DNA from: Acidobacteriota bacterium
Lineage (GTDB): Bacteria; Acidobacteriota; Thermoanaerobaculia; Multivoradales; JBCCEF01
Reading direction: 5' to 3'
NCBI GenBank assembly: GCA_039028635.1
Contig: JBCCHV010000005.1
Coordinates: 12,118-76,117 of the forward strand
Length of the DNA stretch: 64,000 bases
This document shows positions 3,744 through 59,811 of this stretch, piece after piece (position 1 is the stretch's first letter; each line of letters begins with the position of its first letter). The position numbers and the translations under genes were made by a program. The notes beneath the pieces were generated by a model. That model made no database searches and was not told the DNA's origin. It saw nothing but the letters and a program-made list of their open reading frames with translations.

Positions 3744-6034
3744 CTACGACCCCTGCTCCGAAGGACTGGTTTCTCGCTCGGGGACAACAAGCTCCACCTC
3801 TCCTCCAGCGGGGAGGGTATCGCTAACGCAGGTCGGTTGCTCCTGGCGCCAATCCCTCCGGGTCGTCGCCGCAGCAAGGTAGTCCGCCTCGGTCATGACG
3901 CATGCGGTGTAAAGCCCTGGTGCCATCCTGGGAATTTCGAGGCTCTTGCTACCAAGCTGCCACGTCACACCATGGCCCCGAGACCATTGCCATAGCCTCT
4001 GCTGAGACAGTGGGATGCCATCCTGGAGAATCACGACCTGGCCTCGCTCGCGGCTCGAGGAGGAGTCAACCTCTCCTTCGAAGCGGATGAAGAGACGTCC
4101 CCATTCTGCGGAGACCTCGAACGTCAGGTCTTCGGAAAAGGGAACGCTCCTGGCCTGAAGGCCGTGCCCGGGCGCACTGACGATCGCGTGGAGTTGTTGG
4201 GCATCGGCTCGCAGGCGAGCGTCGAAGTAGCCGGATAGATCTGTCCTGGCCGAGTCTCCAGACGCGGCGAGGAATGGTTGGACCACTTCGAGATCAACAG
4301 AGGCTCCCGGCACGGGACTACCCTTCTCGGAAACCACGCGGCCACGAATTGCCTGCTTGCTGTGCAGCACGAGCTCCGCCGGCCCCCAGGGAGTCCCCTC
4401 GACGACCGAGGCCATCACGCTGTCACTCGACCTCTCGTCATCGCCAGCGCCCTTCCGGGCGGCCACCGAAACCGCCCCCTCGCGAAACGCCCGGAGCCGG
4501 AACTCACCATCCTCCTCGGAGCGCCCTGAGGCCCTCGCGTCCGAACCCCGCAAGAACACCTGCGCTTCCGCCACAGGGCGTCCTTGTTCATCGACCACCC
4601 GACCGAAGACCTCCGTCTCCGGAAGCACAATGTCGAGATCCGCCTCGCCCTTCGAATCTGCGCGAACCTCGACCCGGTCGCGCAGCCCCTCCAACTCCAA
4701 CTCCGGAACGTCGACCTCGATATCCCACCATCCATCCTCTGGAAGTACCCCGATGAAAGCCCCGTCTCGGTCTGTCGGCGTGTGGGCGCGAGAGATCCCG
4801 GACCGACCACCAAACCAGATCGTGCCTTCCACGGGCTCTTCGCCATAGAGCAACTCCCCGCGGACTATCACGAGATCGAGAGTGACCGCGATACGAGGGT
4901 CGGCAGCGGTCACCATGACATCGGGTCGCCCAAACATCTGGTTCCCCAGGGAGTCCTGCACCTTGACGAGGAATGTTCCTGGCGCTTGGTTCTCGAGCAC
5001 CGTGCGCCCTTGAGCCAAGGCTCCACGAAACGCGGAGTCTCCGTCGGCTGAGCCAGAGAGGTCCGACATGCGAGAGACAGAAACCTGCCACGGCTTGCCG
5101 CGCCAGTCCTCCGGGGGTTCGACCAGGACCTCGATTTCGAGAGGGCGGTAGAGAGTGATGGGCGCCTTCAGACGTACTTCGGCCGAGTCCCAAACTTCCA
5201 GCGGAAACTCTCTCGCCTCCACGAATCCTGGATGAGCAACCTCCAGAACGTAGGCTCCGGAAGCGAGTCCTGCAAGCTGGAAGAATCCATCCCCCTGCAA
5301 GGGCACCTCGAGCACCGGCTTCGCCAGCCGTTGCGCCAACCCAGTATCGGCTCCACGAGGAACGAAGGGGAAGAGCCTAGCGGAACCTTCCGAGGTTAGA
5401 AGTTCGCCGTCAATCGACTCGGCTCGACCAACCAGAGATCCCCCTTCTTTCAAGTCGAAGGGGGCAAAATGCACCACCGAGGCTGGCTTGACCTCGACCC
5501 CGAACTCATACATCGGGACGTAGCCCGCAACCCGAAACTCGGCATCTAGCAATCCCGCGGGCACGTCACAGGACCACTTATCCTCCTCCACGGGGCAGCG
5601 CGCTCGAGAGGTAGGAACCGCACCCGATCGCAGGGGCTCCGGCGAGGAGAAGCGGATTTCGAGACTGCTCGGTAGTTTGCCCTTGCCGTCGAGCAGTTTC
5701 AGCGTGCCCGAGAGTCGCCCCGCCGGCCGAGTGAGAAAGTGGAGCTGCGTGTCTCCCGAGGCCTCGAAGGACTGCCTGCGACTTCGAGACAGGCCTCCCA
5801 TGAGGTTTCCGCCGGAAGCACCAAGGAGGCCAACCCCAAGTCATCGAACGCGACCTCGCGAGTCTCAGGTTCCTCGCCAAGAAGCCGAAGCTGCACCAAT
5901 CCGAGGGCCTCGGCCTCACCCTCAACACGCTCACCTGACAGAGAGACGTGAACGTCCGAGGCTTCCATGGACGGCACCGCCAGCCCCAGGAGCAGAAACG
6001 GGGCAGCCAGGCCGACAGCGAGCGATCTCGTCAT
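3744..6034 (-). CDS. Large secreted protein with repeated carboxypeptidase-regulatory-like beta-sandwich domains; the N-terminal signal-peptide segment is in another frame (frameshift or pseudogene?)
   Basis: 685-aa ORF 3744-5801 with repeated GxVVDxxGxPVxxAxV motifs (FGRVVDEQGRPVAEAQVFL, IRGRVVSEKGSPVPGASVDL). ORF 5699-6043 in a different frame encodes MTRSLAVGLAAPFLLLGLAVPSMEA, a signal peptide. The ATG at 6034 overlaps the upstream gene's stop codon (ATGA). Confidence 0.5.
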
Positions 6035-6384
6035 CCTGGGCAATACCCGTTGCAGTCTGGCTCCTCCGTCTCTTCGACCTCGACGAGGAGGCAGGCACCG
6101 CCGCTGGTTACACAGAGGACGCCATGCATGTCACGAATGTTCTCGCAGTAGATCCCGTCGCCCGTTCCGTAATTCGAAGCGGACTGGCACTTGGTGTCAC
6201 AGGGGCCGAACCAACCGGAGCAGTTTGAGTTGTCTGGAACGCAGTTGAAACAGCCAACCATCCTGGCTCCATGTGCCGCCCAAACGCCACCGAAACCTAG
6301 CAGAACAGTGAGAACCAGAATGGCTCTCCGGCACGAAAATCGGTCCGTTAGTCGAGCGTCGCCCTGGCCCGCGCCACCATACAT
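6031..6384 (-). CDS. Possible small secreted Cys-rich protein (117 aa, about 10 Cys after a signal-like segment), in frame with the orphan Rhs fragment
   Basis: MYGGAGQGDARLTDRFSCRRAILVLTVLLGFGGVWAAHGA/RMVGCFNCVPDNSNCSGWFGPCDTKCQ...DCNGYCPG. Its stop overlaps the ATG of the downstream large secreted protein (ATGA). Confidence 0.3.
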   Translation of the reverse strand: MYGGAGQGDARLTDRFSCRRAILVLTVLLGFGGVWAAHGARMVGCFNCVPDNSNCSGWFGPCDTKCQSASNYGTGDGIYCENIRDMHGVLCVTSGGACLLVEVEETEEPDCNGYCPG

Positions 6385-6906
6385 GTCCCGCTCGTGGCCG
6401 GTGAGCCTCATCCGCTCGCTCGACCCGTTGGGCACGGACTCTTCCCCAAACGGGAAGTAGGTATGAAGCCCCGCACTGCGCCCGTCGGCCTTGGTGATGA
6501 GCCTCGGGGTGCCGAGATGGTCGAGGTGGAAGAACCTCCATCCCTCGGCCGGCCTCCAGGAAGCCAGCAGCTGACCGTCCCGATGGATGTGGTCTTCCCG
6601 GTGGTTCCAGGTGCCGGCGGAGCCTCCGACGGTACCCCATGTGCGCAGCACCTAGCCGCCGAGGTCGCGCAGGGTCCAGGTCTCTTCGATCGGGCTTTCG
6701 GCCCAGTGGAGGGTGTTGATGCGCTCGTCGTCGGCGGTGTAGAGGTAGTAGTCCTCGATGGCGCCGTCGCCGCTCTCCTTGGACCTCAGCTTCGACAAGG
6801 CGTCCCAGGTGTAGGTGTAGCCGGTGGTGCCGGAGCCGAAGTGGAGCTGATTGCCAGCGGCGTCGCAGCCGGCCCCGGTCCAGCGATTGGCGGCCTCCCT
6901 GACCAC
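6031..6906 (-). pseudogene. Orphan Rhs C-terminal core fragment, disrupted by an in-frame TAG and lacking the DPxGL/toxin end
   Basis: NRWTGAGCDAAGNQL..YLYTADDERI..PIEETWTLRDLGG*VLRTWGTVGG..ASWRP..LDHLGTPRL..FPFGE..TGHERD aligns with residues of the full Rhs (TNRLTGAGYDAAGNQL...TWTVRDLDGQVLRTW...). TAG at 6652-6654 sits where the full gene has CAG. The sequence diverges after GHERD. Confidence 0.7.
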
Positions 6907-7010
6907 CGGTCCAATCCTTGACAGCCTTCAGGAACCGCCACCATAAGAGCCCCGCAAGAGCTTTTCCTTCCAATAGTCCTGGAGAAGAGCGAAACTCAAG
7001 AGCGGTTCGA

Positions 7011-7397
7011 CTAGTCGTCCCACTGGAAAACGGTCTCAGTTCCCGCCTCGAACGGAAGATCATCATCAGGATGGAGAAGCCAGCAAACTTGGTAGAGGGT
7101 TGGCCAATCTCGAAGACGTCTCCAAGTGAAATCGACCCTTTCAACCTGTCGATCGAGTGGACCGGTCCAAAGGCGAAATCCTTCGACATACATCTCTCCA
7201 ATCACCACCGCATTCTCCTCCAAAAGAGAACCCAGCAGATCGAGAACGGCTCCCCTAATATCTTCCTGAGACTCAGAATACCCCAGCTCTTGACGCACCG
7301 ATTCGACCAGATCCCAAAAGCCGAATTCGCGTTCCTCGTCGACTTCACTTGTAACTGCCACAAAAATTCGCTTCTTTTGACTCTTTGAGAGTAGCAT
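7011..7397 (-). CDS. Rhs-associated immunity-like protein 2, paralogue of the 7548-7964 gene
   Basis: 128 aa in a local AT-rich patch. Shares GFRLW.G....VERVDFTWRRLRDWP with imm1 (GFRVWPG...VERIRFAWRLLEDWP). Confidence 0.55.
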   Translation of the reverse strand: MLLSKSQKKRIFVAVTSEVDEEREFGFWDLVESVRQELGYSESQEDIRGAVLDLLGSLLEENAVVIGEMYVEGFRLWTGPLDRQVERVDFTWRRLRDWPTLYQVCWLLHPDDDLPFEAGTETVFQWDD

Positions 7398-7424
7398 CGG
7401 CTATTGGCGGAGGGGTTGGAGTAG
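7395..7424 (+). repeat. 30-bp repeat copy B (catcggctattggcggaggggttggagtag)
   Basis: Matches 3642-3671 at 28 of 30 positions. Overlaps the start codon of imm2 on the opposite strand. Confidence 0.7.
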
Positions 7425-7547
7425 CGATCCAGAGCGATCAACCCAACATAGCTACGCAAAAATAAGCCGATGCAATCACAAAGAGGACAGCCGCGAACAT
7501 TAGGTGTGGCCTATCACCTCAATATCGGCACGGCACCCATAGAGGAC

Positions 7548-7964
7548 TCATGGCGGAAGACGACCAGCGTCTCCGTCCCGAGAATAGCTAGCCGGCAGTA
7601 GGTCACTCTCGGTCTCCATCGGAATGTCGTCACCGGCGGGAAAGAAGCAGCAGACATCATCGATCGATGGCCAATCTTCAAGAAGTCTCCACGCGAACCG
7701 AATTCGTTCCACGTGAATATTGAAGTCTCCAGGCCAGACCCGAAAACCACTCTCATAGAGATTTCCGACCTGCATCTTCTTGGATGCCAAGAGCTCTCGT
7801 AAAACTCTCAGAGTCGCCTCCTGTATCGATGCTTTCGACTCGCGGCGACCCAGAAGATCCCTAATATCCTCTACCAGAACGTAGAACTGCATCTCTCTGG
7901 CCTCTTCCAGAAAAATCATCCACTCGGACTCAAGAACTTCAGACTGCTCTACTGTAAGTCGCAC
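7548..7964 (-). CDS. Rhs-associated immunity-like protein 1, the likely cognate of the Rhs C-terminal toxin
   Basis: 138-aa ORF starting 11 nt after the Rhs stop. Low-GC composition. No signal peptide. Confidence 0.6.
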   Translation of the reverse strand: MRLTVEQSEVLESEWMIFLEEAREMQFYVLVEDIRDLLGRRESKASIQEATLRVLRELLASKKMQVGNLYESGFRVWPGDFNIHVERIRFAWRLLEDWPSIDDVCCFFPAGDDIPMETESDLLPASYSRDGDAGRLPP

Positions 7965-7974
7965 CGTGCTACTC

Positions 7975-10900
7975 CTAATTTTCCAGGAACTTTATCTTTC
8001 TGACTTTCAAGCCTGGAAGGTCCAAGTTGATTGTGGAATGACCTGATGCAGACCTGGACTTAGCTCGATAGCTGACAGTTGCGCCCGGAGCCAGCTTCAC
8101 CGTAACTCGCCCTGGCCCCCGAGAGACGACAGAGCCACCTCTCGACAGTCGCCCGAACAACTTCTGTGCAGCCTTCTCACCACCCGGCAAAAATCTAATC
8201 TTCTTACTGGATCCGGCCACCCCAATGAGCCGCCCTGCCGGCCTTACGATCGCGGTAGCCCTGGAGATCGTTGCCTGCTCCGCCAAAGTAAACCCTGTAA
8301 CGAGCGCGCCAGCAGCCACCGCCGAGGGAGCCTCCACGGCAGCATCTCTAAAGAGCTGCAGCCTCTCGGACGGTAAGGCGCTGGAGTCGATGCCCTCGGC
8401 CTCGAGCTCTGCTGCCATGGAGCCGGGATCCGGTTGATCCGCTTCGTCCTCCGGATTTTCGTCGCCCTCGAGGTACTCGCCAAGGGCTGCCTGAAAGAAC
8501 AAGGCAATCTCATCGACTGCACGCTGGAAGGCATTTCGCCCCTGCTTCGAAGCCGGCAGCAGGCCATCGGGATCAACCCACTTGAGGGGGTTATTGAGAG
8601 CGTAGGTGTAGCGATTCAGGGACTGGGGGTTCTTGAGGCTCCCTCCCACGGGGTCGACACTGAGAAACCTGCCGTTGAGGGGTGAGCAGTACCTGGCGTG
8701 CATGTAGTCAAGGTCGTCATCTTGGCCAGGTGTTCCGTGATGATCGCGTTCGTGGCCGGTGAATTTGAGCCTCTCCTCGAGGTGGACGGTGCCGAGCTCT
8801 TCTCCGAAGGGAAAGAAGACCGAGAGACGCGGAATCTGTCCATTGGCATTGACCGAGAGCCGTGGCGTTCCGAGGTGGTCGAGAAGCTGGAGGCGGACTC
8901 CCTCCTGCGGCCGCCACGAGGCCAGCAGACTGCCTTCACGGTAAATGTAGTCCTCGTGGTGGGTCCAGGCCCCGCTGGAGCCGCCGACGTTGGTCCATGT
9001 GCGGAGTACCTGCCCATCGAGGTCGCGCACGGTCCAGGTTTCCTCGATCGGCTGAACGGCATTGCGGAAGGTACAGATGCGCTCGTCATCGGCGGTGTAC
9101 AGGTAGAGATCGTCCTGAGTGCCGTTGTTGCGGCGAGCGCGCTTCATCTTGGAGAGAGAGTCCCACTCGTAAGCGAAGCCCTGAGTGCCGACACCCCAGT
9201 TGAGCTGATTGCCCGCCGCGTCGTAGCCGGCCCCGGTCAAGCGATTGGTGACCTCACTGGCCACCGGGGTCCGAGTCGAGGTCGAGCCGCCCGAGGTGGT
9301 GGTGATCGATCCGAGATTGCCGAAACGGTCGTAACCGTAAGTCTGCCGATCGCCTCCCCCGAGCACCCCTTCCACCAAACGACTGACCGAGTCGTAGCGA
9401 TAGCGCTCGTCACCGAGGGCCTTGACATTGCCGGCACCGTCATACTGATAACTCAGCCCATCGGCGGAAGCTCCAGGTGCGAGCGCAAGCCCGGGATCGG
9501 CCAGACCGTTGAAACGTACGCCCACCGACCGCGGTCGCCGCATCCCCCAGGGATCGCGGGCCTGAAAATAGGTGATGCCGCCGCTATGGGCCACTTCCTG
9601 AAGCATGCCGTTGTCATGATACGAAACCGTCGCCTGCACGCCCGGGTAGCCGCCGACAGCGGTCAGGCTCCCCTGGACGTAGGTGGAGGTGGCGGCACGC
9701 ACGGAGTCGGAGCCGGCGCAGGGGAAAAAGGTGCAGCGGGGAAAGGTCACCTGACGCAAGTTGCCGAGATCGTCCCAGGTCCACCCTTGAGTGAAGGACT
9801 GCAGCGAAGACAGGGCCGTGCGCCGAGAGCTGACCCGCCCGCCGAGCCCACCATAGGCGTAGGTCTCGGTCACCGAGACGTCGATCTCGGGACCATTCGG
9901 GTTCCAGGGAGGCACGAACCAGTTGTGACGGGTGGCCGTCTTGGTCTTGCCCTTCGAACGGTCTAGCGAGTTGGTGCCGATTCCATAGGTGAATGTCTTG
10001 AGGAATCGCCGTAGTCCGGCGCTCTCTCGAATCGACAGCAGACGCTCGGCGCGGTCGAAGTCGAACTCGAGATCGAAGGCACCGGCCGCCGCCCCCACCC
10101 ACTGCCGGTGGGCATGGCCGCGCGCATCGTACTCCCGGTAGAAAAGCGTGCCGTTGCCGGAAAAGCCCAGCTCGGGATGGGTTTCCGAAAGGAGAAATCC
10201 TCGACCGTCATACTGAAAGCGGCGCACCTGGTGACCACCGGTGCGGGGCGTCCGCGCTTCGATCAGGCGATCGGCGGCATCGTAGAAGTAGCTCGTCGTG
10301 ACCTCCGCCCCAGCGTTCCCGGAGGGCTCTTCCACCGCCGTCAAACGCCCATACCGGTCGTAGGTCTCGGTGGTGGTCGAAGGCGTCTCGGCGCCATTCG
10401 TCCCGGTGGCTACCTCGACCGTACGGGCCAAGGTTCGGATGCCCTGATAGGTGAACCGAATCGGATTGCCGTCCGGCAAGGTGAGGGTCCGCGGCCTGCC
10501 GAAGGGGTCATAGCCGGAGTACACGGTTCGAGGATAGGACGATCCGTGGTCACTGGTTCGGCGGGAGGACTGGGACCGCTTCCAACCGTTCGGGTAGTAG
10601 GCCGTCTCGACCTCGCTCCAAACACCATCGGGCAGAAGCTCGCGGTCCTGCCAGACGCGTCCCCAGGGATCGAAAAAGGTATGGCGCTGGGCCAGGGTGG
10701 CACCGCTCGTCTGCCCATTGGGCCGATGGATCACCTTCACCTGGCCAGCCCGGCTCGGCAGGGATCGCAGATAGTCGATCTCGATCCAGGCTCCCTGACC
10801 CGCCGTCGGCTGAATCGCCGTCAGCCGACCGAGAGCGTCATAGGAGTAGTCGGTTCGGACGCCTGCCGGATCCTTGGAATGCCGCACCAATCCGGTGGAG

Positions 10901-13002
10901 GCATCGATTCCCTGATCCAGCGTGAAGAAGTGCTCCGCCCCTGTCAGCGCACTGCCATTGCCCTTCCGATACTCGCTGCGTGAGCGCTGCCCGTGTTGAT
11001 ATTGATGCTTGATCCAGTAGACCGCTGCGGCCGGCACGCCGAGGCCACACACCGGATTGAAGACTCCCACCGATTGCAGATCGCCGCCGTAGAAGCGCTC
11101 CGCCGTCACCTTGCCGAAACTGTCTTTGTTGCGCACCACCACCACATCGTCAGTGCCACGAGTCGTTCCTGCGAGTTGGCGAGAGCGACGCAAGAAGCCC
11201 GTGCCGGCATCGAAGCAGTATTCGGCCTTGACCTCGGAAGCACCCTGCCTCACCGAGGTGTCCGTGAAGGTACCCAAAACCCAAGGGGAAGTGGTCGGCC
11301 AAGGGCTATAGCTGTGGCCTGGTAGGGGGTTGTTGCTGAAGGCGTCGTAGCTGTAAGTGCCGCGGCTCGGGTTGTAGGCCGAGGTCACCGTACGGGCCGG
11401 CCCCAGGGAGGACGAACCACCGGTGGTCACCACCCGGTAGTGGCCGAGGCCATCGAAATCGGAGGACGCGACGTCGGTGGTGCGATTGCCATCGGCCTCG
11501 TAGACCGTGCGTTGCCTTTCGAGACGGCGGTTGGAGTCGTACCAATCGCTGGTGTAGCGCACGTTGCCGAAGGGTTTGAGCTTGTCGCGGCCGTAGTTCA
11601 CGTAAATCGAGCGCCGCAGAGTGCCGCTACCGGCCCGGCCATCCCAGATCTCTTGCGACAGGAACCGGCCACCGTGAGACCTACCTCGCCGGTAGGGCAG
11701 GCCATACTCCCAGGCAGTCGGATCATTCGGAAACATAGGCTTCTCGGTGAAGTGGTGCACCGTGTCGTCTCCGGCCGGCGAGGTCACCGTGATCTGACGC
11801 CCGAAGTCGCCGTTGAGCTGGTTGCGGCTCTGGCGATAGGTCCAGGTGCAATCCTGAGTGCCGAGGTCGAAATCGAAACACTGTCCGTTGCTGTCGAGAA
11901 CCCGCTTGGTCTCGACCGCCAAGGTTTCTTGGTCGGCCAGACTTTCCGGCACGTGTGGGGCTCTCGAGAGCAAGGTGAAGTTCTGATAGGTCCACTCGAT
12001 CAGACCACGAGTCGGGGCCCGCAACTGCCGGATCGCCCCCGGCAAAGAAGCGATGGTCGTCCCGAGCTGATTGCAGGAGCTGTAATAACTCGGCATCTCC
12101 CAGGAGGAGCCGTCCGGGAGATCGATGCGGGTCAACAGGTCGACCATCGCGTTCGGCCCCGTCGGGTCGCTGTGACCGTCGGGATAGGGAATCTGATCGT
12201 CCTCGCAATGGCGCTCGATGGCCGTCTCCTGATAATGGAAGTTGTAAATCGCCCGAGAGCCACCAAAGGCCTGCAAGTTGACCGACTTCACCCGCCATTG
12301 CTGGGTCATCGGCGAACGCTCGAAGTCGACCGTATGCTCCCGGCCCAGCCGATCTTCCAGCTCCCAGTCTGAGCCTGCCAGGTCGACCTTCACCCAGTTG
12401 CCTTGGCGATCTTCCATCCGCGTCAGCCGCCAGCGGCCGTTGGCCTCGTGCTCGAAAGTTCGGATCGTGCCATCGGGAAACTCGACCCGACGGGTCACCC
12501 CTTGGGCACTCAGCCGAAGGTAGGAGTTGTCGCGGCTGTAGAGAAAACCGGTGCCGATAGTCTCCCCGACGTGAAGCGACTGGTAGAAAGCGCTCTCCGA
12601 GCCGTCCGCTCCGACAAAGCGCCAGGGGCCCGGGGCATAGGTGTAGTTGGGCGACAGCAAGGCCCCACCGAGCGACAGGGTCCAGCCCAGACCGGCATTG
12701 CTTTGCCGATTCGGATAGACCTCTGTCAATTCAAAGTCGCCGATTCGGCGGGTCTCCAGATCCCACACCTTGGCGTTGTAGGACAGCGTCAGGCCATAGG
12801 AGAAGCCGCCCGCCACCGGCGTTTCTGAGCCGATCGGCAAGGCCAGAATCAAGTTGCCGTTGAACAACGCCACGGAGTCGATGCCGGAGTAGTCGTAGAC
12901 CTTCTCCGCCGAAAAGCCTCGAGCCTCGATCGGATCCTGCTGGGCAAAGGCCAGCAGCGGGACCCACAATACGGCGAGGAGAACCAGCCACCGAAGCTTC
13001 AT
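7975..13002 (-). CDS. Rhs/YD-repeat polymorphic toxin with N-terminal Sec signal peptide (WapA-like) and a variable C-terminal toxin module
   Basis: 1675 aa. Signal peptide MKLRWLVLLAVLWVPLLAFAQQ. Many YD repeats (YDALGRLTAI, YDRYGRLTAV, YDAADRLIEA). Rhs core end ...PxxxxDPDGL (WVDPDGLLPAS) at about 8552-8596. About 190 aa of C-terminal domain in lower-GC DNA. Confidence 0.9.
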   Translation of the reverse strand: MKLRWLVLLAVLWVPLLAFAQQDPIEARGFSAEKVYDYSGIDSVALFNGNLILALPIGSETPVAGGFSYGLTLSYNAKVWDLETRRIGDFELTEVYPNRQSNAGLGWTLSLGGALLSPNYTYAPGPWRFVGADGSESAFYQSLHVGETIGTGFLYSRDNSYLRLSAQGVTRRVEFPDGTIRTFEHEANGRWRLTRMEDRQGNWVKVDLAGSDWELEDRLGREHTVDFERSPMTQQWRVKSVNLQAFGGSRAIYNFHYQETAIERHCEDDQIPYPDGHSDPTGPNAMVDLLTRIDLPDGSSWEMPSYYSSCNQLGTTIASLPGAIRQLRAPTRGLIEWTYQNFTLLSRAPHVPESLADQETLAVETKRVLDSNGQCFDFDLGTQDCTWTYRQSRNQLNGDFGRQITVTSPAGDDTVHHFTEKPMFPNDPTAWEYGLPYRRGRSHGGRFLSQEIWDGRAGSGTLRRSIYVNYGRDKLKPFGNVRYTSDWYDSNRRLERQRTVYEADGNRTTDVASSDFDGLGHYRVVTTGGSSSLGPARTVTSAYNPSRGTYSYDAFSNNPLPGHSYSPWPTTSPWVLGTFTDTSVRQGASEVKAEYCFDAGTGFLRRSRQLAGTTRGTDDVVVVRNKDSFGKVTAERFYGGDLQSVGVFNPVCGLGVPAAAVYWIKHQYQHGQRSRSEYRKGNGSALTGAEHFFTLDQGIDASTGLVRHSKDPAGVRTDYSYDALGRLTAIQPTAGQGAWIEIDYLRSLPSRAGQVKVIHRPNGQTSGATLAQRHTFFDPWGRVWQDRELLPDGVWSEVETAYYPNGWKRSQSSRRTSDHGSSYPRTVYSGYDPFGRPRTLTLPDGNPIRFTYQGIRTLARTVEVATGTNGAETPSTTTETYDRYGRLTAVEEPSGNAGAEVTTSYFYDAADRLIEARTPRTGGHQVRRFQYDGRGFLLSETHPELGFSGNGTLFYREYDARGHAHRQWVGAAAGAFDLEFDFDRAERLLSIRESAGLRRFLKTFTYGIGTNSLDRSKGKTKTATRHNWFVPPWNPNGPEIDVSVTETYAYGGLGGRVSSRRTALSSLQSFTQGWTWDDLGNLRQVTFPRCTFFPCAGSDSVRAATSTYVQGSLTAVGGYPGVQATVSYHDNGMLQEVAHSGGITYFQARDPWGMRRPRSVGVRFNGLADPGLALAPGASADGLSYQYDGAGNVKALGDERYRYDSVSRLVEGVLGGGDRQTYGYDRFGNLGSITTTSGGSTSTRTPVASEVTNRLTGAGYDAAGNQLNWGVGTQGFAYEWDSLSKMKRARRNNGTQDDLYLYTADDERICTFRNAVQPIEETWTVRDLDGQVLRTWTNVGGSSGAWTHHEDYIYREGSLLASWRPQEGVRLQLLDHLGTPRLSVNANGQIPRLSVFFPFGEELGTVHLEERLKFTGHERDHHGTPGQDDDLDYMHARYCSPLNGRFLSVDPVGGSLKNPQSLNRYTYALNNPLKWVDPDGLLPASKQGRNAFQRAVDEIALFFQAALGEYLEGDENPEDEADQPDPGSMAAELEAEGIDSSALPSERLQLFRDAAVEAPSAVAAGALVTGFTLAEQATISRATAIVRPAGRLIGVAGSSKKIRFLPGGEKAAQKLFGRLSRGGSVVSRGPGRVTVKLAPGATVSYRAKSRSASGHSTINLDLPGLKVRKIKFLEN

Positions 13003-13646
13003 CGCTCACCTCCCGCCGCCACCGTCTGAGGCACGGTCGTCGCCGTGATCGCGAGCGACTCCGAGTCGACCACGAACACGACGTCACCGCCTGCGAATCC
13101 GAGGCCGCGCTCCTGCGCACCGAGGAGACGATGCAGGCGCGAGGGCTCGATCTGGACCCGAGCGTTGGCCTTGCCATCGCCGTCCGCCGACCCGCCGTCA
13201 CCGACCGTCCCCACCGAAACCCGCGCCTTGTCCCCGGGGCGAATCCACATCACCTCCAGCGTGCGGCGAGCGAGCACCAGCTCCGAGCCATCGCCGGCAA
13301 ACGCCGACAACGGAACCGTCAAGGGGTCCAGATCCGGCAACTCTCGAATCACCCACGCACCCGACGAGAGATCCGCCGAAGCCCAGACCGAAAGTTCCGG
13401 AAGGTCCTCCACGCTATCCAGCGAGACTTCGCCGTCCTGGTCATCGTCCCGCAGCGTCAATGACCAGCTCTCGAGTCGAGGACGGTAACCCTGCCGAGAC
13501 CGGCCCACCCCCAGCAGTGCCACCTCGCCACCAGGAGACACACCTGAAATCGAAACCGTCCGGTCGCTTACATCAACCTCCAAACCTGCTAGCGATCCGC
13601 CTACCGACAAAAATCCCAACACCGCCAACATCAACGCTCGATGCAT
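12999..13646 (-). CDS. Secreted hypothetical protein, immediately upstream of and overlapping the Rhs gene
   Basis: Signal peptide MHRALMLAVLGFLSVGGSLAG. GGGAGG RBS. Its stop overlaps the Rhs start (4-nt overlap). Confidence 0.55.
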   Translation of the reverse strand: MHRALMLAVLGFLSVGGSLAGLEVDVSDRTVSISGVSPGGEVALLGVGRSRQGYRPRLESWSLTLRDDDQDGEVSLDSVEDLPELSVWASADLSSGAWVIRELPDLDPLTVPLSAFAGDGSELVLARRTLEVMWIRPGDKARVSVGTVGDGGSADGDGKANARVQIEPSRLHRLLGAQERGLGFAGGDVVFVVDSESLAITATTVPQTVAAGGER

Positions 13647-13702
13647 CACGTCCAACCTCCCAAGAAATGCCCTCGTCCTTCCAGGACAACGTAAAACTGG
13701 AT

Positions 13703-14200
13703 TCAGTTCCTTGCCAAAGCGCTACAGCAAGCCACGTGCCATGGGGGACTTCGCCGTTTTACAGGCGTTTTCGGCGATCGGGCCCGAAAAAGATGTCCGG
13801 AAGATGTCCGGACGGACGTCTTCCGGACGTCCTTTTCTGCCTTTCCGGAGCTGAATTCGAGGTCGGCGAGGGTCTCGAGGCAGGTGGCCAAGCGGTCGAG
13901 GGAGTCGGCCGCCTGGAGGGCGTAGGTCGCCCGGGTGATGTCGCAGGCATCGGCCGGCCGGAGCTGGCGCAGCGTCGCCTCCAGACGGCGCAAGTCTCGG
14001 GCGACGGCCGCGATGGTCGAGGTCGTCGAGCGGTCGGCACCCTCGGGCACCACTCCCTTGGGCACCGGCCGCCCATCGACGACAACCTGCTGGAGTCGCT
14101 GACTGAGCCAGCGCTCGGATCGCTCCTCGTCCTTCTCCAGCGAGGTCAACGCGGCTTCGCGGAGGACCGATGCTCGCCGCGCCTCGTCGTCCCGATTCAT
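13703..14200 (-). CDS. Hypothetical protein (gene B of a two-gene operon), charged, probably coiled-coil
   Basis: MNRDDEARRASVLREAALTSLEKDEERSERW.... Its ATG overlaps the TGA of gene A (ATGA). Confidence 0.45.
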   Translation of the reverse strand: MNRDDEARRASVLREAALTSLEKDEERSERWLSQRLQQVVVDGRPVPKGVVPEGADRSTTSTIAAVARDLRRLEATLRQLRPADACDITRATYALQAADSLDRLATCLETLADLEFSSGKAEKDVRKTSVRTSSGHLFRARSPKTPVKRRSPPWHVACCSALARN

Positions 14201-14724
14201 GAAGCGTTGGCCTGCTTCGGGTGATCCGGGCACTGCTCCGAAAGGCGACGAGCGAGGACGAGGTCGACCTCGGTGATGGCACCGGAGGCCGGCGTGGTGA
14301 GGATCACCCAGGCGGTGTTGAGCACCACCGCCAGGGCCGGCAAGGCACCGGCCGCTTGAATGATCCCGCTGACGAAGGCCGCGAAGCTCAGCGCCGCGGC
14401 AGAGCTCTGGAGCACGAAGGGACGCACCAGACAGCGGTTGTCCTGGGACAGCCGCCAGCCCTCGTAGTCGCTTCGGCGGTCGTAGAGCTTCACGCTGCTG
14501 AGACGAGGCAGCGCGACGGACAGCTCCGGAGCCGCCGTGTCGCCAGTGCCGAGGAGCGCCTCCCGCCCGCGAGTCAAGGTGCTCTGAATGCGCTCGGGCT
14601 TGAGATGACCCGGCAAATCTCCCGGCACCGGGAACGCCGACAAACCGCTTTCCCACAGGAGTTGGTAGTAGGCCACTGGATCCAGCTCGTCCGGCTGCGA
14701 AACGGTGGTTGGAGAAGAGCTCAT
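14197..14724 (-). CDS. Hypothetical membrane-associated protein (gene A), with a C-terminal hydrophobic hairpin
   Basis: MSSSPTTVSQPDELDP...AALSFAAFVSGIIQAAGALPALAVVLNTAWVILTT.... GGGAGG RBS 5 nt before the ATG. Confidence 0.5.
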   Translation of the reverse strand: MSSSPTTVSQPDELDPVAYYQLLWESGLSAFPVPGDLPGHLKPERIQSTLTRGREALLGTGDTAAPELSVALPRLSSVKLYDRRSDYEGWRLSQDNRCLVRPFVLQSSAAALSFAAFVSGIIQAAGALPALAVVLNTAWVILTTPASGAITEVDLVLARRLSEQCPDHPKQANAS

Positions 14725-14861
14725 GGCAACCTCCCAGTCGAGTGAAGTTCGGGACGGGCAGAACCCCGCACAGCGCATCTGAGGAACATGCCCGCCTTCG
14801 CGATTACGGACATACTGTATATTAAAAGAAGTCTTTCGTCAAGTCTTTTGAAGTCAAAATA

Positions 14862-14959: not shown

Positions 14960-15406
14960 ATGTTTCCAGATATGAGACACACGGCGGACCCCCTCGGCAT
15001 TGCCCTGCGCTCGCTGCGCGAGCAGGCGGGACTGCAGCAGGGCGAGCTCGGCCTCAAGGCCGCGGTGACACAGTCGAACGTCAGTGCGTACGAGTTGGGC
15101 AAACGGGCCCCACAATGGCCAACCCTGCTGCGCCTGCTCGACGCCATGGGCGCCGATCTGCTCGACCTGAGCGTGCGCATGGGAGAGCCGGGTCGGTTGG
15201 AGTCGACCCACGAGGCGCTGCGTCGACTCCTCGGCAACGGGGTCTTCGAGCAGCCCGCGGAGGGCGAGCCGGCAGCGACGACGGAGCATCCGCTAGACTT
15301 CTTAGTTGATGCAGTCATCGATCGACTGACGGAACGCACCGCCCTACGGCGCCTGGTCAAGGCCGAGGCCGTGAAGAGCCCGGTGGTGGAGAGGGAAGAG
15401 CGTTGA
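14960..15406 (+). CDS. XRE-family helix-turn-helix transcriptional regulator
   Basis: Cro/C1-type HTH: LGLKAAVTQSNVSAYELGKRAPQWPTLLRLLDAMG. Confidence 0.8.
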   Translation: MFPDMRHTADPLGIALRSLREQAGLQQGELGLKAAVTQSNVSAYELGKRAPQWPTLLRLLDAMGADLLDLSVRMGEPGRLESTHEALRRLLGNGVFEQPAEGEPAATTEHPLDFLVDAVIDRLTERTALRRLVKAEAVKSPVVEREER

Positions 15407-16473
15407 GCGAGCAGGTTTTCAATCGACTGGACAGCGAAGAGCTCGCCGCCCACGAGCAGGCGGCGCGCCTCGCCGGCCTCGAGGGCGAGGCGAGAGTGGA
15501 TGCCGCCCGCACGCAGGCCGGCTGCCAACGGCGTTCCTTCGTCCAGCTCGCGATGAGCTTTTGCCGCCAGGGCGACGAGCCCCTGCTGTGGGGCCGAGTC
15601 GCCATCGCCGCCGCCGAAGCCAGCCCGCCACCCTCGGGCCCGGAGCTCCTACCGCTCGCCTGGGCGACGCTCGGCAACGCGCACCGCATCGCCGGCGACC
15701 TGCGAGCCGCCGGACGCTGCTTCTTCATCGCCCGGGATTTGCTCGAGGACGTGGCGGATCCGCTGGACCTGGCGCGGATTTACTCGCTCGAGGCGTCATG
15801 GGTTCGCGAAACCCGCGACTTTGGATCCGCGATATCGCTGGTTGAGAAAGCGATGAAGGCAGTCGAAGGTGTCGCGAACGAGAAATTTCTCGCTCGGCTC
15901 GAGGTTCAGGCTGGTCTGGTCATGGTGGACCTGGGAGATCACGGCTCAGCGACTGAGTCGCTTGCCGCGGGCCTTCTCAAGCTTGATCACCAAGGAAGCC
16001 CGAGCCTTCGGTTGATCGCTGCACACAATCTTGCATTCTGCGCCTTTAAGCAAGGTCGCTTCGACGCCGCAATGCGTTTGGTTCATTCATTGCGTCGAGA
16101 CTACTGCGACTATGGAAATCCGAAGCTTCTACTGCTTCGAGACTGGCTTGTGGCGCGTATTACGGCTGGTAGAGGCCATCTAGAAGAGGCAGCGACTCTT
16201 CTGCGCTCAATCTGCAGTGAATGCCAAGAGCAAGGATTCCCGTACCTCGCAGGACTCATAGAACTCGACCGAGCCGGAGTACTAATCGACCTTAGCCAGC
16301 TTGATCGAGCTCTTGAGTCCGCCGCGACTGCGAGCTATGTCTTAGATGCAGCAGGGGCCTCGCAGAAGGCTCTCGCAGCGATCATCTTGCTTCAGAAGGG
16401 AATCATCAAGAAATCGGCACCCGAGCGACTCAAGGAGCTCGTGATCATTGCAAAGCGACATCTGGAGTCCTAG
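15403..16473 (+). CDS. TPR-like repeat protein, coupled to the upstream HTH gene; possible RNPP-like sensor half
   Basis: Alpha-helical repeat composition. TTG start overlaps the HTH stop. The 3' two-thirds (about 15750-16473) is clearly lower in GC than the 5' part. Confidence 0.55.
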   Translation: MSEQVFNRLDSEELAAHEQAARLAGLEGEARVDAARTQAGCQRRSFVQLAMSFCRQGDEPLLWGRVAIAAAEASPPPSGPELLPLAWATLGNAHRIAGDLRAAGRCFFIARDLLEDVADPLDLARIYSLEASWVRETRDFGSAISLVEKAMKAVEGVANEKFLARLEVQAGLVMVDLGDHGSATESLAAGLLKLDHQGSPSLRLIAAHNLAFCAFKQGRFDAAMRLVHSLRRDYCDYGNPKLLLLRDWLVARITAGRGHLEEAATLLRSICSECQEQGFPYLAGLIELDRAGVLIDLSQLDRALESAATASYVLDAAGASQKALAAIILLQKGIIKKSAPERLKELVIIAKRHLES

Positions 16474-59034: not shown

Positions 59035-59040
59035 GTCCCC

Positions 59041-59811
59041 ATGAACCGTCTGACCCTCATGCTCGCCGTCGTCCTGCTGTGTCTGCCGGCCACGGCCTGT
59101 CGCAGCGGCGTCAAGGAAGATCCCATCCTGCGCCTCGCCGCCCAGGAATCTCTCGACGAGGGCAAGCGCCTGATGGCCGAGGAGAAGTTCTCTCGCGCCC
59201 GGCGCTACCTCTCCCACGCCTTCGAGGTCGAGCCCAACTCCCTGAGCGGTCGCGAAGCGCTGCTCTTGCTCGCCGACAGCTTCTATCTCGACGGCGGTGT
59301 GCTCAATTACATCCAGTCCGAATCGAAGTACCGAGACTTCCTGAATCGCTTTCCGACCAGCAACCTGGCGGCCTACGCGCAGTACCAGATCGCCAACAGC
59401 CTGGCCGAGCGGATGGAGAAGCCGGATCGCGATCAATCCGCCACCGAGAAGGCTCTGCAGGCCTACCGCGAGCTGATTCGCCTCTACCCGACGAGCGACT
59501 ACACGGCCGAGGCCCGCACCCAGATCGTCCGGGTCCTCGACAACCTCGCCGAGCACGAGTTCGTGGTCGGCAACTACTATCTGCGCCGCCCCATCCCGTT
59601 GGCCGCCATCGAGCGCTTCAAAGGGCTGTTGGCGAGCTACCCGGAGTACAGCCAGCGCGACAAGGTGCTGTTCCACCTTGCGAAGGCCTATGGCCTGAGC
59701 TTCCGCGAAGAGCACGCCGGCAAAGCCGAGGAGACCTTCGAGCTGCTGCGACAACAGTTCCCGGAAAGCGAGTGGATCGCCGAGATCCCGAAGCAGAAGG
59801 ACAACTCATGA
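59041..59811 (+). CDS. bamD: Outer-membrane protein assembly factor BamD-like lipoprotein (TPR)
   Basis: Lipobox LLCLPATAC. TPR repeats with the BamD-like pattern. Confidence 0.75.
   Translation: MNRLTLMLAVVLLCLPATACRSGVKEDPILRLAAQESLDEGKRLMAEEKFSRARRYLSHAFEVEPNSLSGREALLLLADSFYLDGGVLNYIQSESKYRDFLNRFPTSNLAAYAQYQIANSLAERMEKPDRDQSATEKALQAYRELIRLYPTSDYTAEARTQIVRVLDNLAEHEFVVGNYYLRRPIPLAAIERFKGLLASYPEYSQRDKVLFHLAKAYGLSFREEHAGKAEETFELLRQQFPESEWIAEIPKQKDNS

Follow-up and report, generated by a model that had tools for sequence, protein, structure and literature searches.

A probable Sec-exported Rhs polymorphic toxin of Acidobacteriota and its upstream partner gene

The DNA analyzed here is a stretch of 64,000 nucleotides from an Acidobacteriota bacterium (contig JBCCHV010000005.1, positions 12,118 to 76,117), referred to as the window, which carries on its minus strand a gene for a 1675-aa Rhs protein. 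This gene is preceded by a gene for a 215-aa protein, here named UP, and followed by two small genes, imm1 and imm2. The arrangement is read as a UP-rhs-imm operon, encoding an Rhs polymorphic toxin which is exported through the Sec pathway and does not depend on a type VI secretion system (T6SS). To this reading, taken together with the full mechanism proposed below and its inferred steps, a probability of about 0.7 is assigned. The logic of the locus is that of any polymorphic toxin, and UP is the feature worth attention.

The order of the genes on the minus strand is UP, rhs, imm1, imm2, a fragment of Rhs core sequence leading into a Cys-rich open reading frame (ORF), and a CarboxypepD_reg gene. 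The TGA of UP and the ATG of rhs overlap by 4 nt, as ATGA, and UP and Rhs are translationally coupled; good Shine-Dalgarno sequences are found before UP, rhs and imm1. A preliminary description of this DNA, made from the sequence alone, proved largely correct. It had proposed a co-translated, secreted 215-aa protein overlapping the start of Rhs: both the overlap and a signal-like N-terminus, beginning MHRALMLAVLGFLSVGGSLAG, are seen upon inspection. The features of the locus are listed below, in the direction of transcription; those located downstream of imm2 are given with their description.

12999-13646, minus strand: UP, 215 aa; Shine-Dalgarno sequence GGGAGG; signal-like N-terminus
7975-13002, minus strand: Rhs polymorphic toxin gene, 1675 aa; PF05593, TIGR01643, TIGR03696
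12943-13002, minus strand: Sec-type signal peptide of Rhs, aa 1-20, MKLRWLVLLAVLWVPLLAFA; read from sequence
8560-8811, minus strand: Rhs-associated core (autoproteolysis region), ending with DPDGL (8560-8574); TIGR03696
8407-8559, minus strand: acidic linker or pre-toxin stretch, aa 1482-1532; host-like GC content; not common to the relative P0068
7978-8406, minus strand: C-terminal toxin domain, unclassified, aa 1533-1675; shared with P0068
7548-7964, minus strand: imm1, candidate cognate immunity protein, 138 aa; isoelectric point (pI) 4.5; no signal peptide
7011-7397, minus strand: imm2, paralogue of imm1, 128 aa; pI 4.35; no signal peptide
6930-8230, no strand: low-GC island (toxin domain, imm1 and imm2); GC minimum of the window

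The Rhs protein, its clade and its secretion context

The window protein is identical to the database entry P0001, 'RHS repeat-associated core domain-containing protein [Acidobacteriota bacterium]', derived from an Acidobacteriota metagenome-assembled genome (MAG). RHS repeats are recognized by PF05593 (E 3.8e-20) and, in 4 stretches, by TIGR01643, while PF25023 is a precomputed annotation on the identical P0001. The Rhs-associated core is detected by TIGR03696 at aa 1398-1481 (E 3.8e-16), and its end reads NPLKWVDPDGL, where DPDGL corresponds to aa 1477-1481. No Pfam match was obtained within aa 1-700. The N-terminus, MKLRWLVLLAVLWVPLLAFA/QQ, displays by inspection the n-, h- and AxA-type c-regions (AFA/QQ) of a Sec signal peptide; the cleavable signal peptide proposed in the preliminary description is thus supported as to its layout, its cleavage being predicted.

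A search with the whole Rhs sequence gave 170 matching proteins at E<=1e-10. The best 120 of them are mostly about 1600-1700 aa long, are 31-58% identical to the query and cover about 88% of it, that is all but the C-terminus. Their conserved N-terminal motif is (Q)HPN..RGF..VNLFNGNL, and a hydrophobic, signal-type stretch is found before it in 89 of the 93 members beginning with D.VNLFNGN; the stretch precedes the motif at the genome loci too. The C-termini are highly variable, with a median length of 189 aa, 69 sequences falling into 50 clusters, and several of them hold differing Pfam toxin domains. Hand-made degenerate DNA patterns were used to look for the N-terminal motif in species-representative genomes and for the UP motif in metagenome contigs. 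The former pattern detected 59 clade genes, nearly all from Acidobacteriota, whose hosts include Thermoanaerobaculia, Holophagales, Pyrinomonadaceae, Blastocatellia and 'Multivoradales'; the few exceptions belong to MAGs labelled as Deltaproteobacteria or Gemmatimonadetes. Judged from these sequences, the Rhs protein belongs to a large, coherent, mostly Acidobacteriota clade, characterized by conserved signal peptides and polymorphic C-termini.

A few members of the clade show additional architectures. In L047 (887-7666, minus strand) three copies of an unannotated domain of about 120 aa, marked by C-R-[LV]-[LVA]-D-T-R, are located between the signal peptide and the Rhs sequence; seemingly the same domain (CRVLDTR, by eye) is inserted within the Rhs of P0031, near its C-terminal end, and this repeat domain has no Pfam match in either protein. 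Downstream of the Rhs gene of P0055, in L239 (15942-17471, plus strand), an orphan fragment of an Rhs C-terminal region, 509 aa long and bearing a Peptidase_M23 domain, is followed by a series of small ORFs, none of which has a Pfam match; together they form a classic orphan toxin/immunity array within the clade.

The preliminary description had reported no T6SS components near the Rhs gene, in an organism with two membranes (diderm), and the scans performed here agree with it. A Pfam scan, which took in essentially all ORFs with coding-like codon composition in the 64-kb window, revealed no Hcp, VgrG, PAAR, Tss or Gsp domain, and no T6SS or type II secretion system (T2SS) Pfam domain was detected within 7-10 kb on either side of seven related loci (L003, L006, L127, L239, L240, L241 and L001). 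Within the Rhs protein itself, Pfam detected no PAAR, prePAAR, VgrG, Hcp or DUF1795 domain. The presence in the window of BamD/YfiO (about 59035-59808), TatA and RseP, along with other housekeeping genes, fits a diderm cell.

Most characterized Gram-negative Rhs toxins are, according to reviews, T6SS cargo, and the scan of the source genome was confined to the window; the Rhs protein might then be a T6SS effector, with vgrG, PAAR or tss genes located elsewhere in the genome and an N-terminus acting as a membrane-targeting helix. This is considered very improbable. The N-terminus has the classical n-h-c layout with AFA/QQ, the position of the hydrophobic stretch is kept in the relatives counted above, the domains typical of T6SS effectors are missing from the protein, from the window and from the seven related loci, and the partner UP appears to be itself secreted. 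T6SS Rhs effectors, such as RhsA and the Tse-type PAAR-Rhs proteins with EagR, do share with the window protein the YD shell, the DPxGL core, the toxin with its immunity protein and the occurrence of orphan or displaced modules; they differ in having PAAR, prePAAR or VgrG-binding N-termini, vgrG or eagR neighbors and no Sec signal, traits which the window locus does not reproduce. The T6SS effector reading was rejected for lack of a PAAR, prePAAR or VgrG-binding N-terminus and of linked T6SS genes, and for the presence of a signal peptide.

The protein had also been called 'WapA-like'. As an analogy of architecture the term holds: WapA of Bacillus subtilis and Streptococcus suis similarly combines a Sec signal peptide, Rhs/YD repeats, a polymorphic C-terminal toxin and an immunity gene, and is independent of T6SS. 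The hosts of WapA are however monoderm, with no outer membrane to cross, whereas the window belongs to a BamD-bearing Acidobacteriota, and no counterpart of the wall-binding N-terminal region of WapA was detected by Pfam in the window Rhs. Membership of the WapA family was rejected on these two grounds. To our knowledge, no UP-like partner is known for WapA.

The UP family and its linkage to Rhs

An exhaustive HMMER search identified 876 representative relatives of UP at E<=1e-3, 168 of which at E<=1e-10, almost all between 190 and 260 aa in length and matching over their full extent. A word-indexed search had returned no UP homologue, a false negative of the method which was overturned by the exhaustive one; for short, divergent or low-complexity queries, negative results of the word-indexed search are not readable as absence. 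No Pfam match was found either for the window UP or for 60 relatives, nor any NCBIfam match, and comparison of UP against plasmids by tblastn gave no match. The family is defined by a mature protein of about 190 aa and by the motifs GxTPGG, DxDxDG, SVWxAVDL, VRPGxGAW and DGGxxDxDG; in the window UP, the GAW of the fourth motif is missing (IRPGDKARV).

An AlphaFold2 model of UP, built on an alignment of 61 sequences, was obtained with a mean predicted local distance difference test score (pLDDT) of 91.9 and a predicted template modelling score (pTM) of 0.86. The model is all-beta and is made up of two sandwich domains. Its best matches in the PDB are tandem FN3 domains, with low TM-scores, as would be expected of two domains that differ in orientation. 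The model confidently predicts a tandem immunoglobulin (Ig)/FN3-like fold for UP. Sequence searches of the PDB with UP, as with the toxin domain and with Rhs, returned nothing meaningful.

The association of UP with Rhs was evaluated from both sides. Starting from Rhs, UP lies directly upstream, on the same strand, in 28 of the 54 clade Rhs genome loci with at least 750 nt of upstream sequence. Starting from UP, the motif scan of metagenome contigs detected 90 loci, in 71 of which the N-terminus of a clade Rhs comes immediately next; among the remaining loci 11 end too soon, 5 are UP-like modules within larger ORFs and 3 have no Rhs match, so that 79 loci are informative and 71 of them (90%) show the adjacency. 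Individual look-ups were made for P0122, P0123, P0127 and P0165 and on the chromosome-scale contigs of the Rhs proteins P0040, P0055, P0060 and P0019; in all seven informative ones UP is located upstream of Rhs, usually with a 4-nt overlap. The chromosome-scale relatives carrying UP-Rhs include OY970380.1, OY970284.1 and the contigs of L239-L241. Finally, in a Candidatus Multivoradales MAG (L071, 163-5976, minus strand) UP (aa 44-264) follows a signal peptide and is joined by a linker, within a single ORF, to an Rhs which lacks a signal peptide of its own. The co-occurrence of the upstream gene with Rhs, an analysis proposed in the preliminary description, is therefore confirmed from either side, and by one fusion. 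Being co-conserved with Rhs, and fused to it once, UP is a genuine partner of the clade; being missing from about half of the clade Rhs genes, it is not essential to the clade.

UP-like modules also occur inside ORFs of 1160-1430 aa (L188, L189 and L227), as well as in L230 and in L179, where the 628-aa ORF runs off the contig end. In L189 the module is contained between Big_3_5/TIG and at least four Calx-beta domains, an extracellular, adhesin-type context.

Upstream of clade Rhs genes without UP, the ORFs are alike within the pairs L075/L094, L068/L114 and L049/L107. A small secreted cadherin-like protein (VLANDxDxDGDxLTV) is found in L075 and L094, and a protein of about 500 aa, with a conserved C-terminal YQDVAEWVPA...GTVVVL, in L068 and L114. 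These ORFs may be alternative accessories, or spurious ORFs of high-GC DNA.

A precedent for this gene order is found in Bdellovibrio, where the small Bd0108 and the YD-repeat protein Bd0109, both exported via Sec, are co-expressed, the former binding the latter in the periplasm (PMC3818213); in both systems, the gene for a small Sec-exported protein is located directly upstream of the gene for a Sec-exported YD-repeat protein. Bd0109 differs in being about 550 aa long, in having no reported toxin/immunity module and in its link to pilus regulation, and Bd0108 is small and disordered, unlike the predicted tandem Ig-like UP. The match in gene order and coupling is an argument for regarding UP as a periplasmic chaperone or inhibitor, keeping Rhs soluble, plugged or inactive and left behind on export; also the absence of UP from about half of the clade would be expected of a helper. 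UP is however predicted to be a well-folded tandem Ig-like protein and not a small disordered peptide, UP-like modules are contained within large extracellular Calx-beta/TIG proteins, and a permanent fusion to the N-terminus of Rhs fits a stable part of a complex better than a releasable chaperone. For these reasons the chaperone role is regarded as rather unlikely.

The toxin/immunity cassette and its downstream remnants

The sequence following the core is 194 aa long and opens with an acidic linker (aa 1482-1559, pI 4.05), while the last 116 aa of the toxin domain are extremely basic (pI 11.9). The alignment to the closest relative, P0002 (58% identity), runs through aa 1480 (DPDG), with no similarity beyond, which sets the protein-level breakpoint at the DPDGL motif. 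Among the best 120 of the 170 relatives, the toxin domain is common to P0068 only (phmmer E 7.6e-18; 41% identity), the similarity starting at residue 52 of the C-terminus. No Pfam, NCBIfam or PDB match was found for the domain, nor any plasmid match by tblastn; the word-indexed homologue search gave no match, not even to the parent P0001 or to P0068, and a two-sequence alignment of the domain, compared to metagenomes, gave none either. An AlphaFold2 model derived from the two sequences was unusable (pLDDT 44.8) and was discarded. Lacking both a family match and a usable model, the toxin is left unclassified.

Downstream, imm1 starts 10 nt past the Rhs stop codon, after the Shine-Dalgarno sequence AGGAG, and its product is 40% identical to that of imm2 over 103 aa (BLASTP, E 8e-27). 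Neither protein matches a known Imm family in Pfam, and no toxin remnant was found between the two genes, upstream of imm2; imm2 may be weakly expressed, or may be an orphan immunity gene. At the P0068 locus, a gene for a 117-aa protein, overlapping the P0068 stop codon, matches the profile built on imm1 and imm2 (hhalign probability 84%, E 7e-6, 79 columns). Taken together with the similarity of the toxin domains, this homologous small gene indicates that the toxin/immunity pairing recurs in an unrelated locus. By its position and homology imm1 is the candidate cognate immunity gene. The combination of a basic toxin and a cytoplasmic, acidic immunity protein suggests a cytoplasmic target, probably nucleic acid.

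The cassette is compositionally foreign. The mean GC content of the window is 66.3%, with a standard deviation of 3.3%; the interval 6901-8200, at 52.2% (z = -4.3), is the lowest 1.3 kb of the window and the only such stretch below 58%, and the trough is real, not a chance fluctuation. Similarly, GC content at third codon positions (GC3) is 50-56% in the island vs 76-88% in the flanking Rhs sequence; imm1 and imm2 have GC contents of 52% and 50.4%, respectively. The preliminary description had placed a drop from about 68% to about 56% exactly at DPDGL. The trough is confirmed, with different figures and a different border: the Rhs body has a GC content of 63%, the first 330 nt or so past the motif (8230-8558) have 63.5%, and the fall, to 50-54%, begins near 8230, inside the C-terminal domain, ending near 6930. 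The displacement of a C-terminal toxin/immunity module, proposed along with it, is supported by the foreign cassette, the break of homology at DPDG and the piece of core found downstream; the coincidence of the GC border with the motif does not hold.

The features located downstream of imm2 are the following.

6400-6927, minus strand: displaced or decayed Rhs core fragment (putative pseudogene), with an in-frame TAG at 6652-6654
6031-6384, minus strand: Cys-rich ORF, 117 aa, opening inside the Rhs-remnant reading frame
3744-6034, minus strand: CarboxypepD_reg/Big_1 repeat gene, with signal peptide; frameshifted

The core fragment is 59% identical in protein, and 71.6% in DNA sequence, to aa 1246-1429 of the main Rhs. 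Its GC content (66.7%, GC3 87.5%) is host-like or above, its homology ends at GHERD, about 45 residues short of a DPxGL end, and its in-frame TAG sits where the relatives have Lys or Gln. Such features are those of an rhs 3' end which has been displaced and has since decayed. An orphan module had been described at 6031-6927; what is found there is a decayed Rhs core with neither a DPxGL end nor a recognizable toxin.

The 117-aa ORF contained in the same region (MYGGAGQGD...) contains a signal- or transmembrane-like stretch, RRAILVLTVLLGFGGVWAAHG, while its tail is rich in Cys (12 in about 70 aa). No Pfam model matches the ORF, and homologues were found at none of about 240 related loci, many of them with short flanks; it might be an independent gene for a small secreted peptide, joined to the remnant by a deletion. 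The CarboxypepD_reg gene, which encodes a signal peptide, opens with an ATG at 6034 overlapping the preceding stop codon as ATGA, in line with the translational coupling reported for this large secreted beta-sandwich protein; the gene is not intact, being split into two frames near 5770-5800, where no homopolymer occurs, and is either a real pseudogene or affected by an assembly error. No counterpart of the protein was found at the same set of loci, with the same limit on their flanks, and, the gene being frameshifted as well, there is no sign of the proposed role of a downstream secreted accessory. Lacking homologues at the related loci, neither the CarboxypepD_reg gene nor the Cys-rich ORF is counted in the system.

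The evidence on the cassette bears also on whether the Rhs protein is an interbacterial toxin at all. It could be a periplasmic or wall-associated YD-repeat protein, structural or signalling, in line with the non-toxin role proposed for Bd0109, or a Tc-like toxin directed against eukaryotes, the YD shell resembling teneurin and TcBC (PF25023 on P0001). Several observations make this improbable: the Rhs core end is intact, the C-termini of the clade are hypervariable, small acidic ORFs are adjacent, a homologous toxin/immunity pair is found at the P0068 locus, and a low-GC cassette and a core remnant complete the standard signature of polymorphic toxins. Furthermore no SpvB, TcdB_mid, propeller or TcA domain was detected by Pfam in the Rhs protein or in the window, and identification with the BC subunit of a Tc toxin was rejected for this reason.

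Upstream of UP, a Pterin_4a-like ORF (14197-14778, minus strand) is followed by a divergent XRE-type helix-turn-helix (HTH) gene and an overlapping tetratricopeptide repeat (TPR) gene (14960-16473, plus strand). The HTH gene is also kept in the locus of the closest relative (L001), TPR homologues are found near UP-Rhs in L213 and L155, and Pterin_4a and TPR_12 genes are located upstream in the P0019 locus (L241). These genes may represent a regulatory neighborhood.

Precedents, proposed mechanism and significance

RHS toxins with a signal peptide have been described by Zhang et al. (2012) as a 'T2SS/Sec-dependent' class occurring in all bacteria, for which Table 1 of that work gives '-' (none) as signature neighbor; Acidobacteria are among the listed hosts of several toxin families (PMC3482391). 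The window locus shares with this class the signal peptide, the RHS repeats, the variable C-terminal toxin and the downstream immunity gene, and departs from it in the specific partner family, UP, tied to one large clade; its toxin and immunity domains match no Pfam model derived from that work. An experimental precedent is Bcn-A of Xanthomonas perforans, a 1398-aa RHS-family bacteriocin whose activity, detected in the supernatant, disappears when xpsD (T2SS) is mutated; the bacteriocin needs accessory ORFs encoded alongside it and has its own immunity ORF (PMC7259588). Like Bcn-A, the window protein is a large Rhs of a Gram-negative organism, predicted to be independent of T6SS; candidate accessory and immunity ORFs accompany it, and host phylum and toxin domain are different. 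The accessories of Bcn-A (ORF2-4) are located downstream of it, while the partner described here is upstream and predicted to be tandem Ig-like. The export route, described at first as not obvious, appears less mysterious in the light of these two reports (PMC3482391, PMC7259588). Given the precedents of Zhang et al., Bcn-A and Bd0108/Bd0109, this kind of system is already known; the novelty lies in how large and coherent the Acidobacteriota clade is, in UP as a partner family and in a toxin/immunity pair that is unclassified.

A mechanism can be proposed, whose inferred steps draw on established Rhs/TcC knowledge and on one experimental precedent. Rhs and UP would both be exported to the periplasm via Sec, and the YD shell would fold around the C-terminal toxin, which a core aspartyl protease would cut at DPDGL, as in TcC and RhsA. 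UP would bind Rhs, probably close to the N-terminus, which is its position in the L071 fusion, and would be an adaptor through which the toxin is displayed on the surface or attaches to its target, Ig/FN3-like modules being used in extracellular adhesin-type proteins. Passage of the complex through the outer membrane would resemble T2SS export, as for Bcn-A; of what such export requires, the signal peptide is seen, and no gsp genes occur in the window. The very basic toxin would then act in the cytoplasm of the target, most likely on nucleic acid, and would be neutralized in sibling cells by the cytoplasmic, acidic imm1 and perhaps by imm2. The toxin/immunity cassette would have come by recombination, displacing a former rhs 3' end.

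A number of points weigh against this picture and keep its probability at the value given above. The signal peptides were called by eye and by a hydrophobicity heuristic only, and for the source genome the T6SS/T2SS scan covers only the 64-kb window, out of a contig of 152.8 kb. About half of the clade Rhs genes are without UP, and the binding of UP to Rhs is deduced from gene order and a single fusion. The nucleic-acid target is guessed from charge alone, for a toxin without a family assignment. In the cassette, imm2, separated from imm1 by 150 nt, lacks a recognizable Shine-Dalgarno sequence. Finally, the core fragment, at 59% identity, is divergent enough that it may derive from another rhs copy.

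A more specific version, put forward tentatively and held to be doubtful as a whole, is that Acidobacteriota have a characteristic delivery system of two components, UP and Rhs, which works without T6SS and in which UP docks on the Rhs shell, exported via Sec, at its N-terminal end. UP could supply recruitment to outer-membrane export, anchoring to the surface of the producer or binding to a receptor on the target, and members without UP would substitute for it small secreted beta-sandwich proteins, as in L075 and L094, or N-terminal fusions, as in L047.

The exit of Sec-signal Rhs toxins from diderm cells, and their delivery to the target, are essentially unstudied, the Xanthomonas bacteriocin being the only experimental case found. 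Acidobacteriota are a dominant soil phylum, and the clade of Sec-signal Rhs proteins which they harbor is large and coherent. Should UP prove to be no more than a chaperone, the locus would be a polymorphic toxin locus of the ordinary sort. As it stands, UP, present in about half of the clade, with 90% consistency in gene order and one natural fusion, is a testable candidate for the missing accessory function, and the succession of UP and Rhs provides a simple genomic marker for T6SS-independent Rhs systems.

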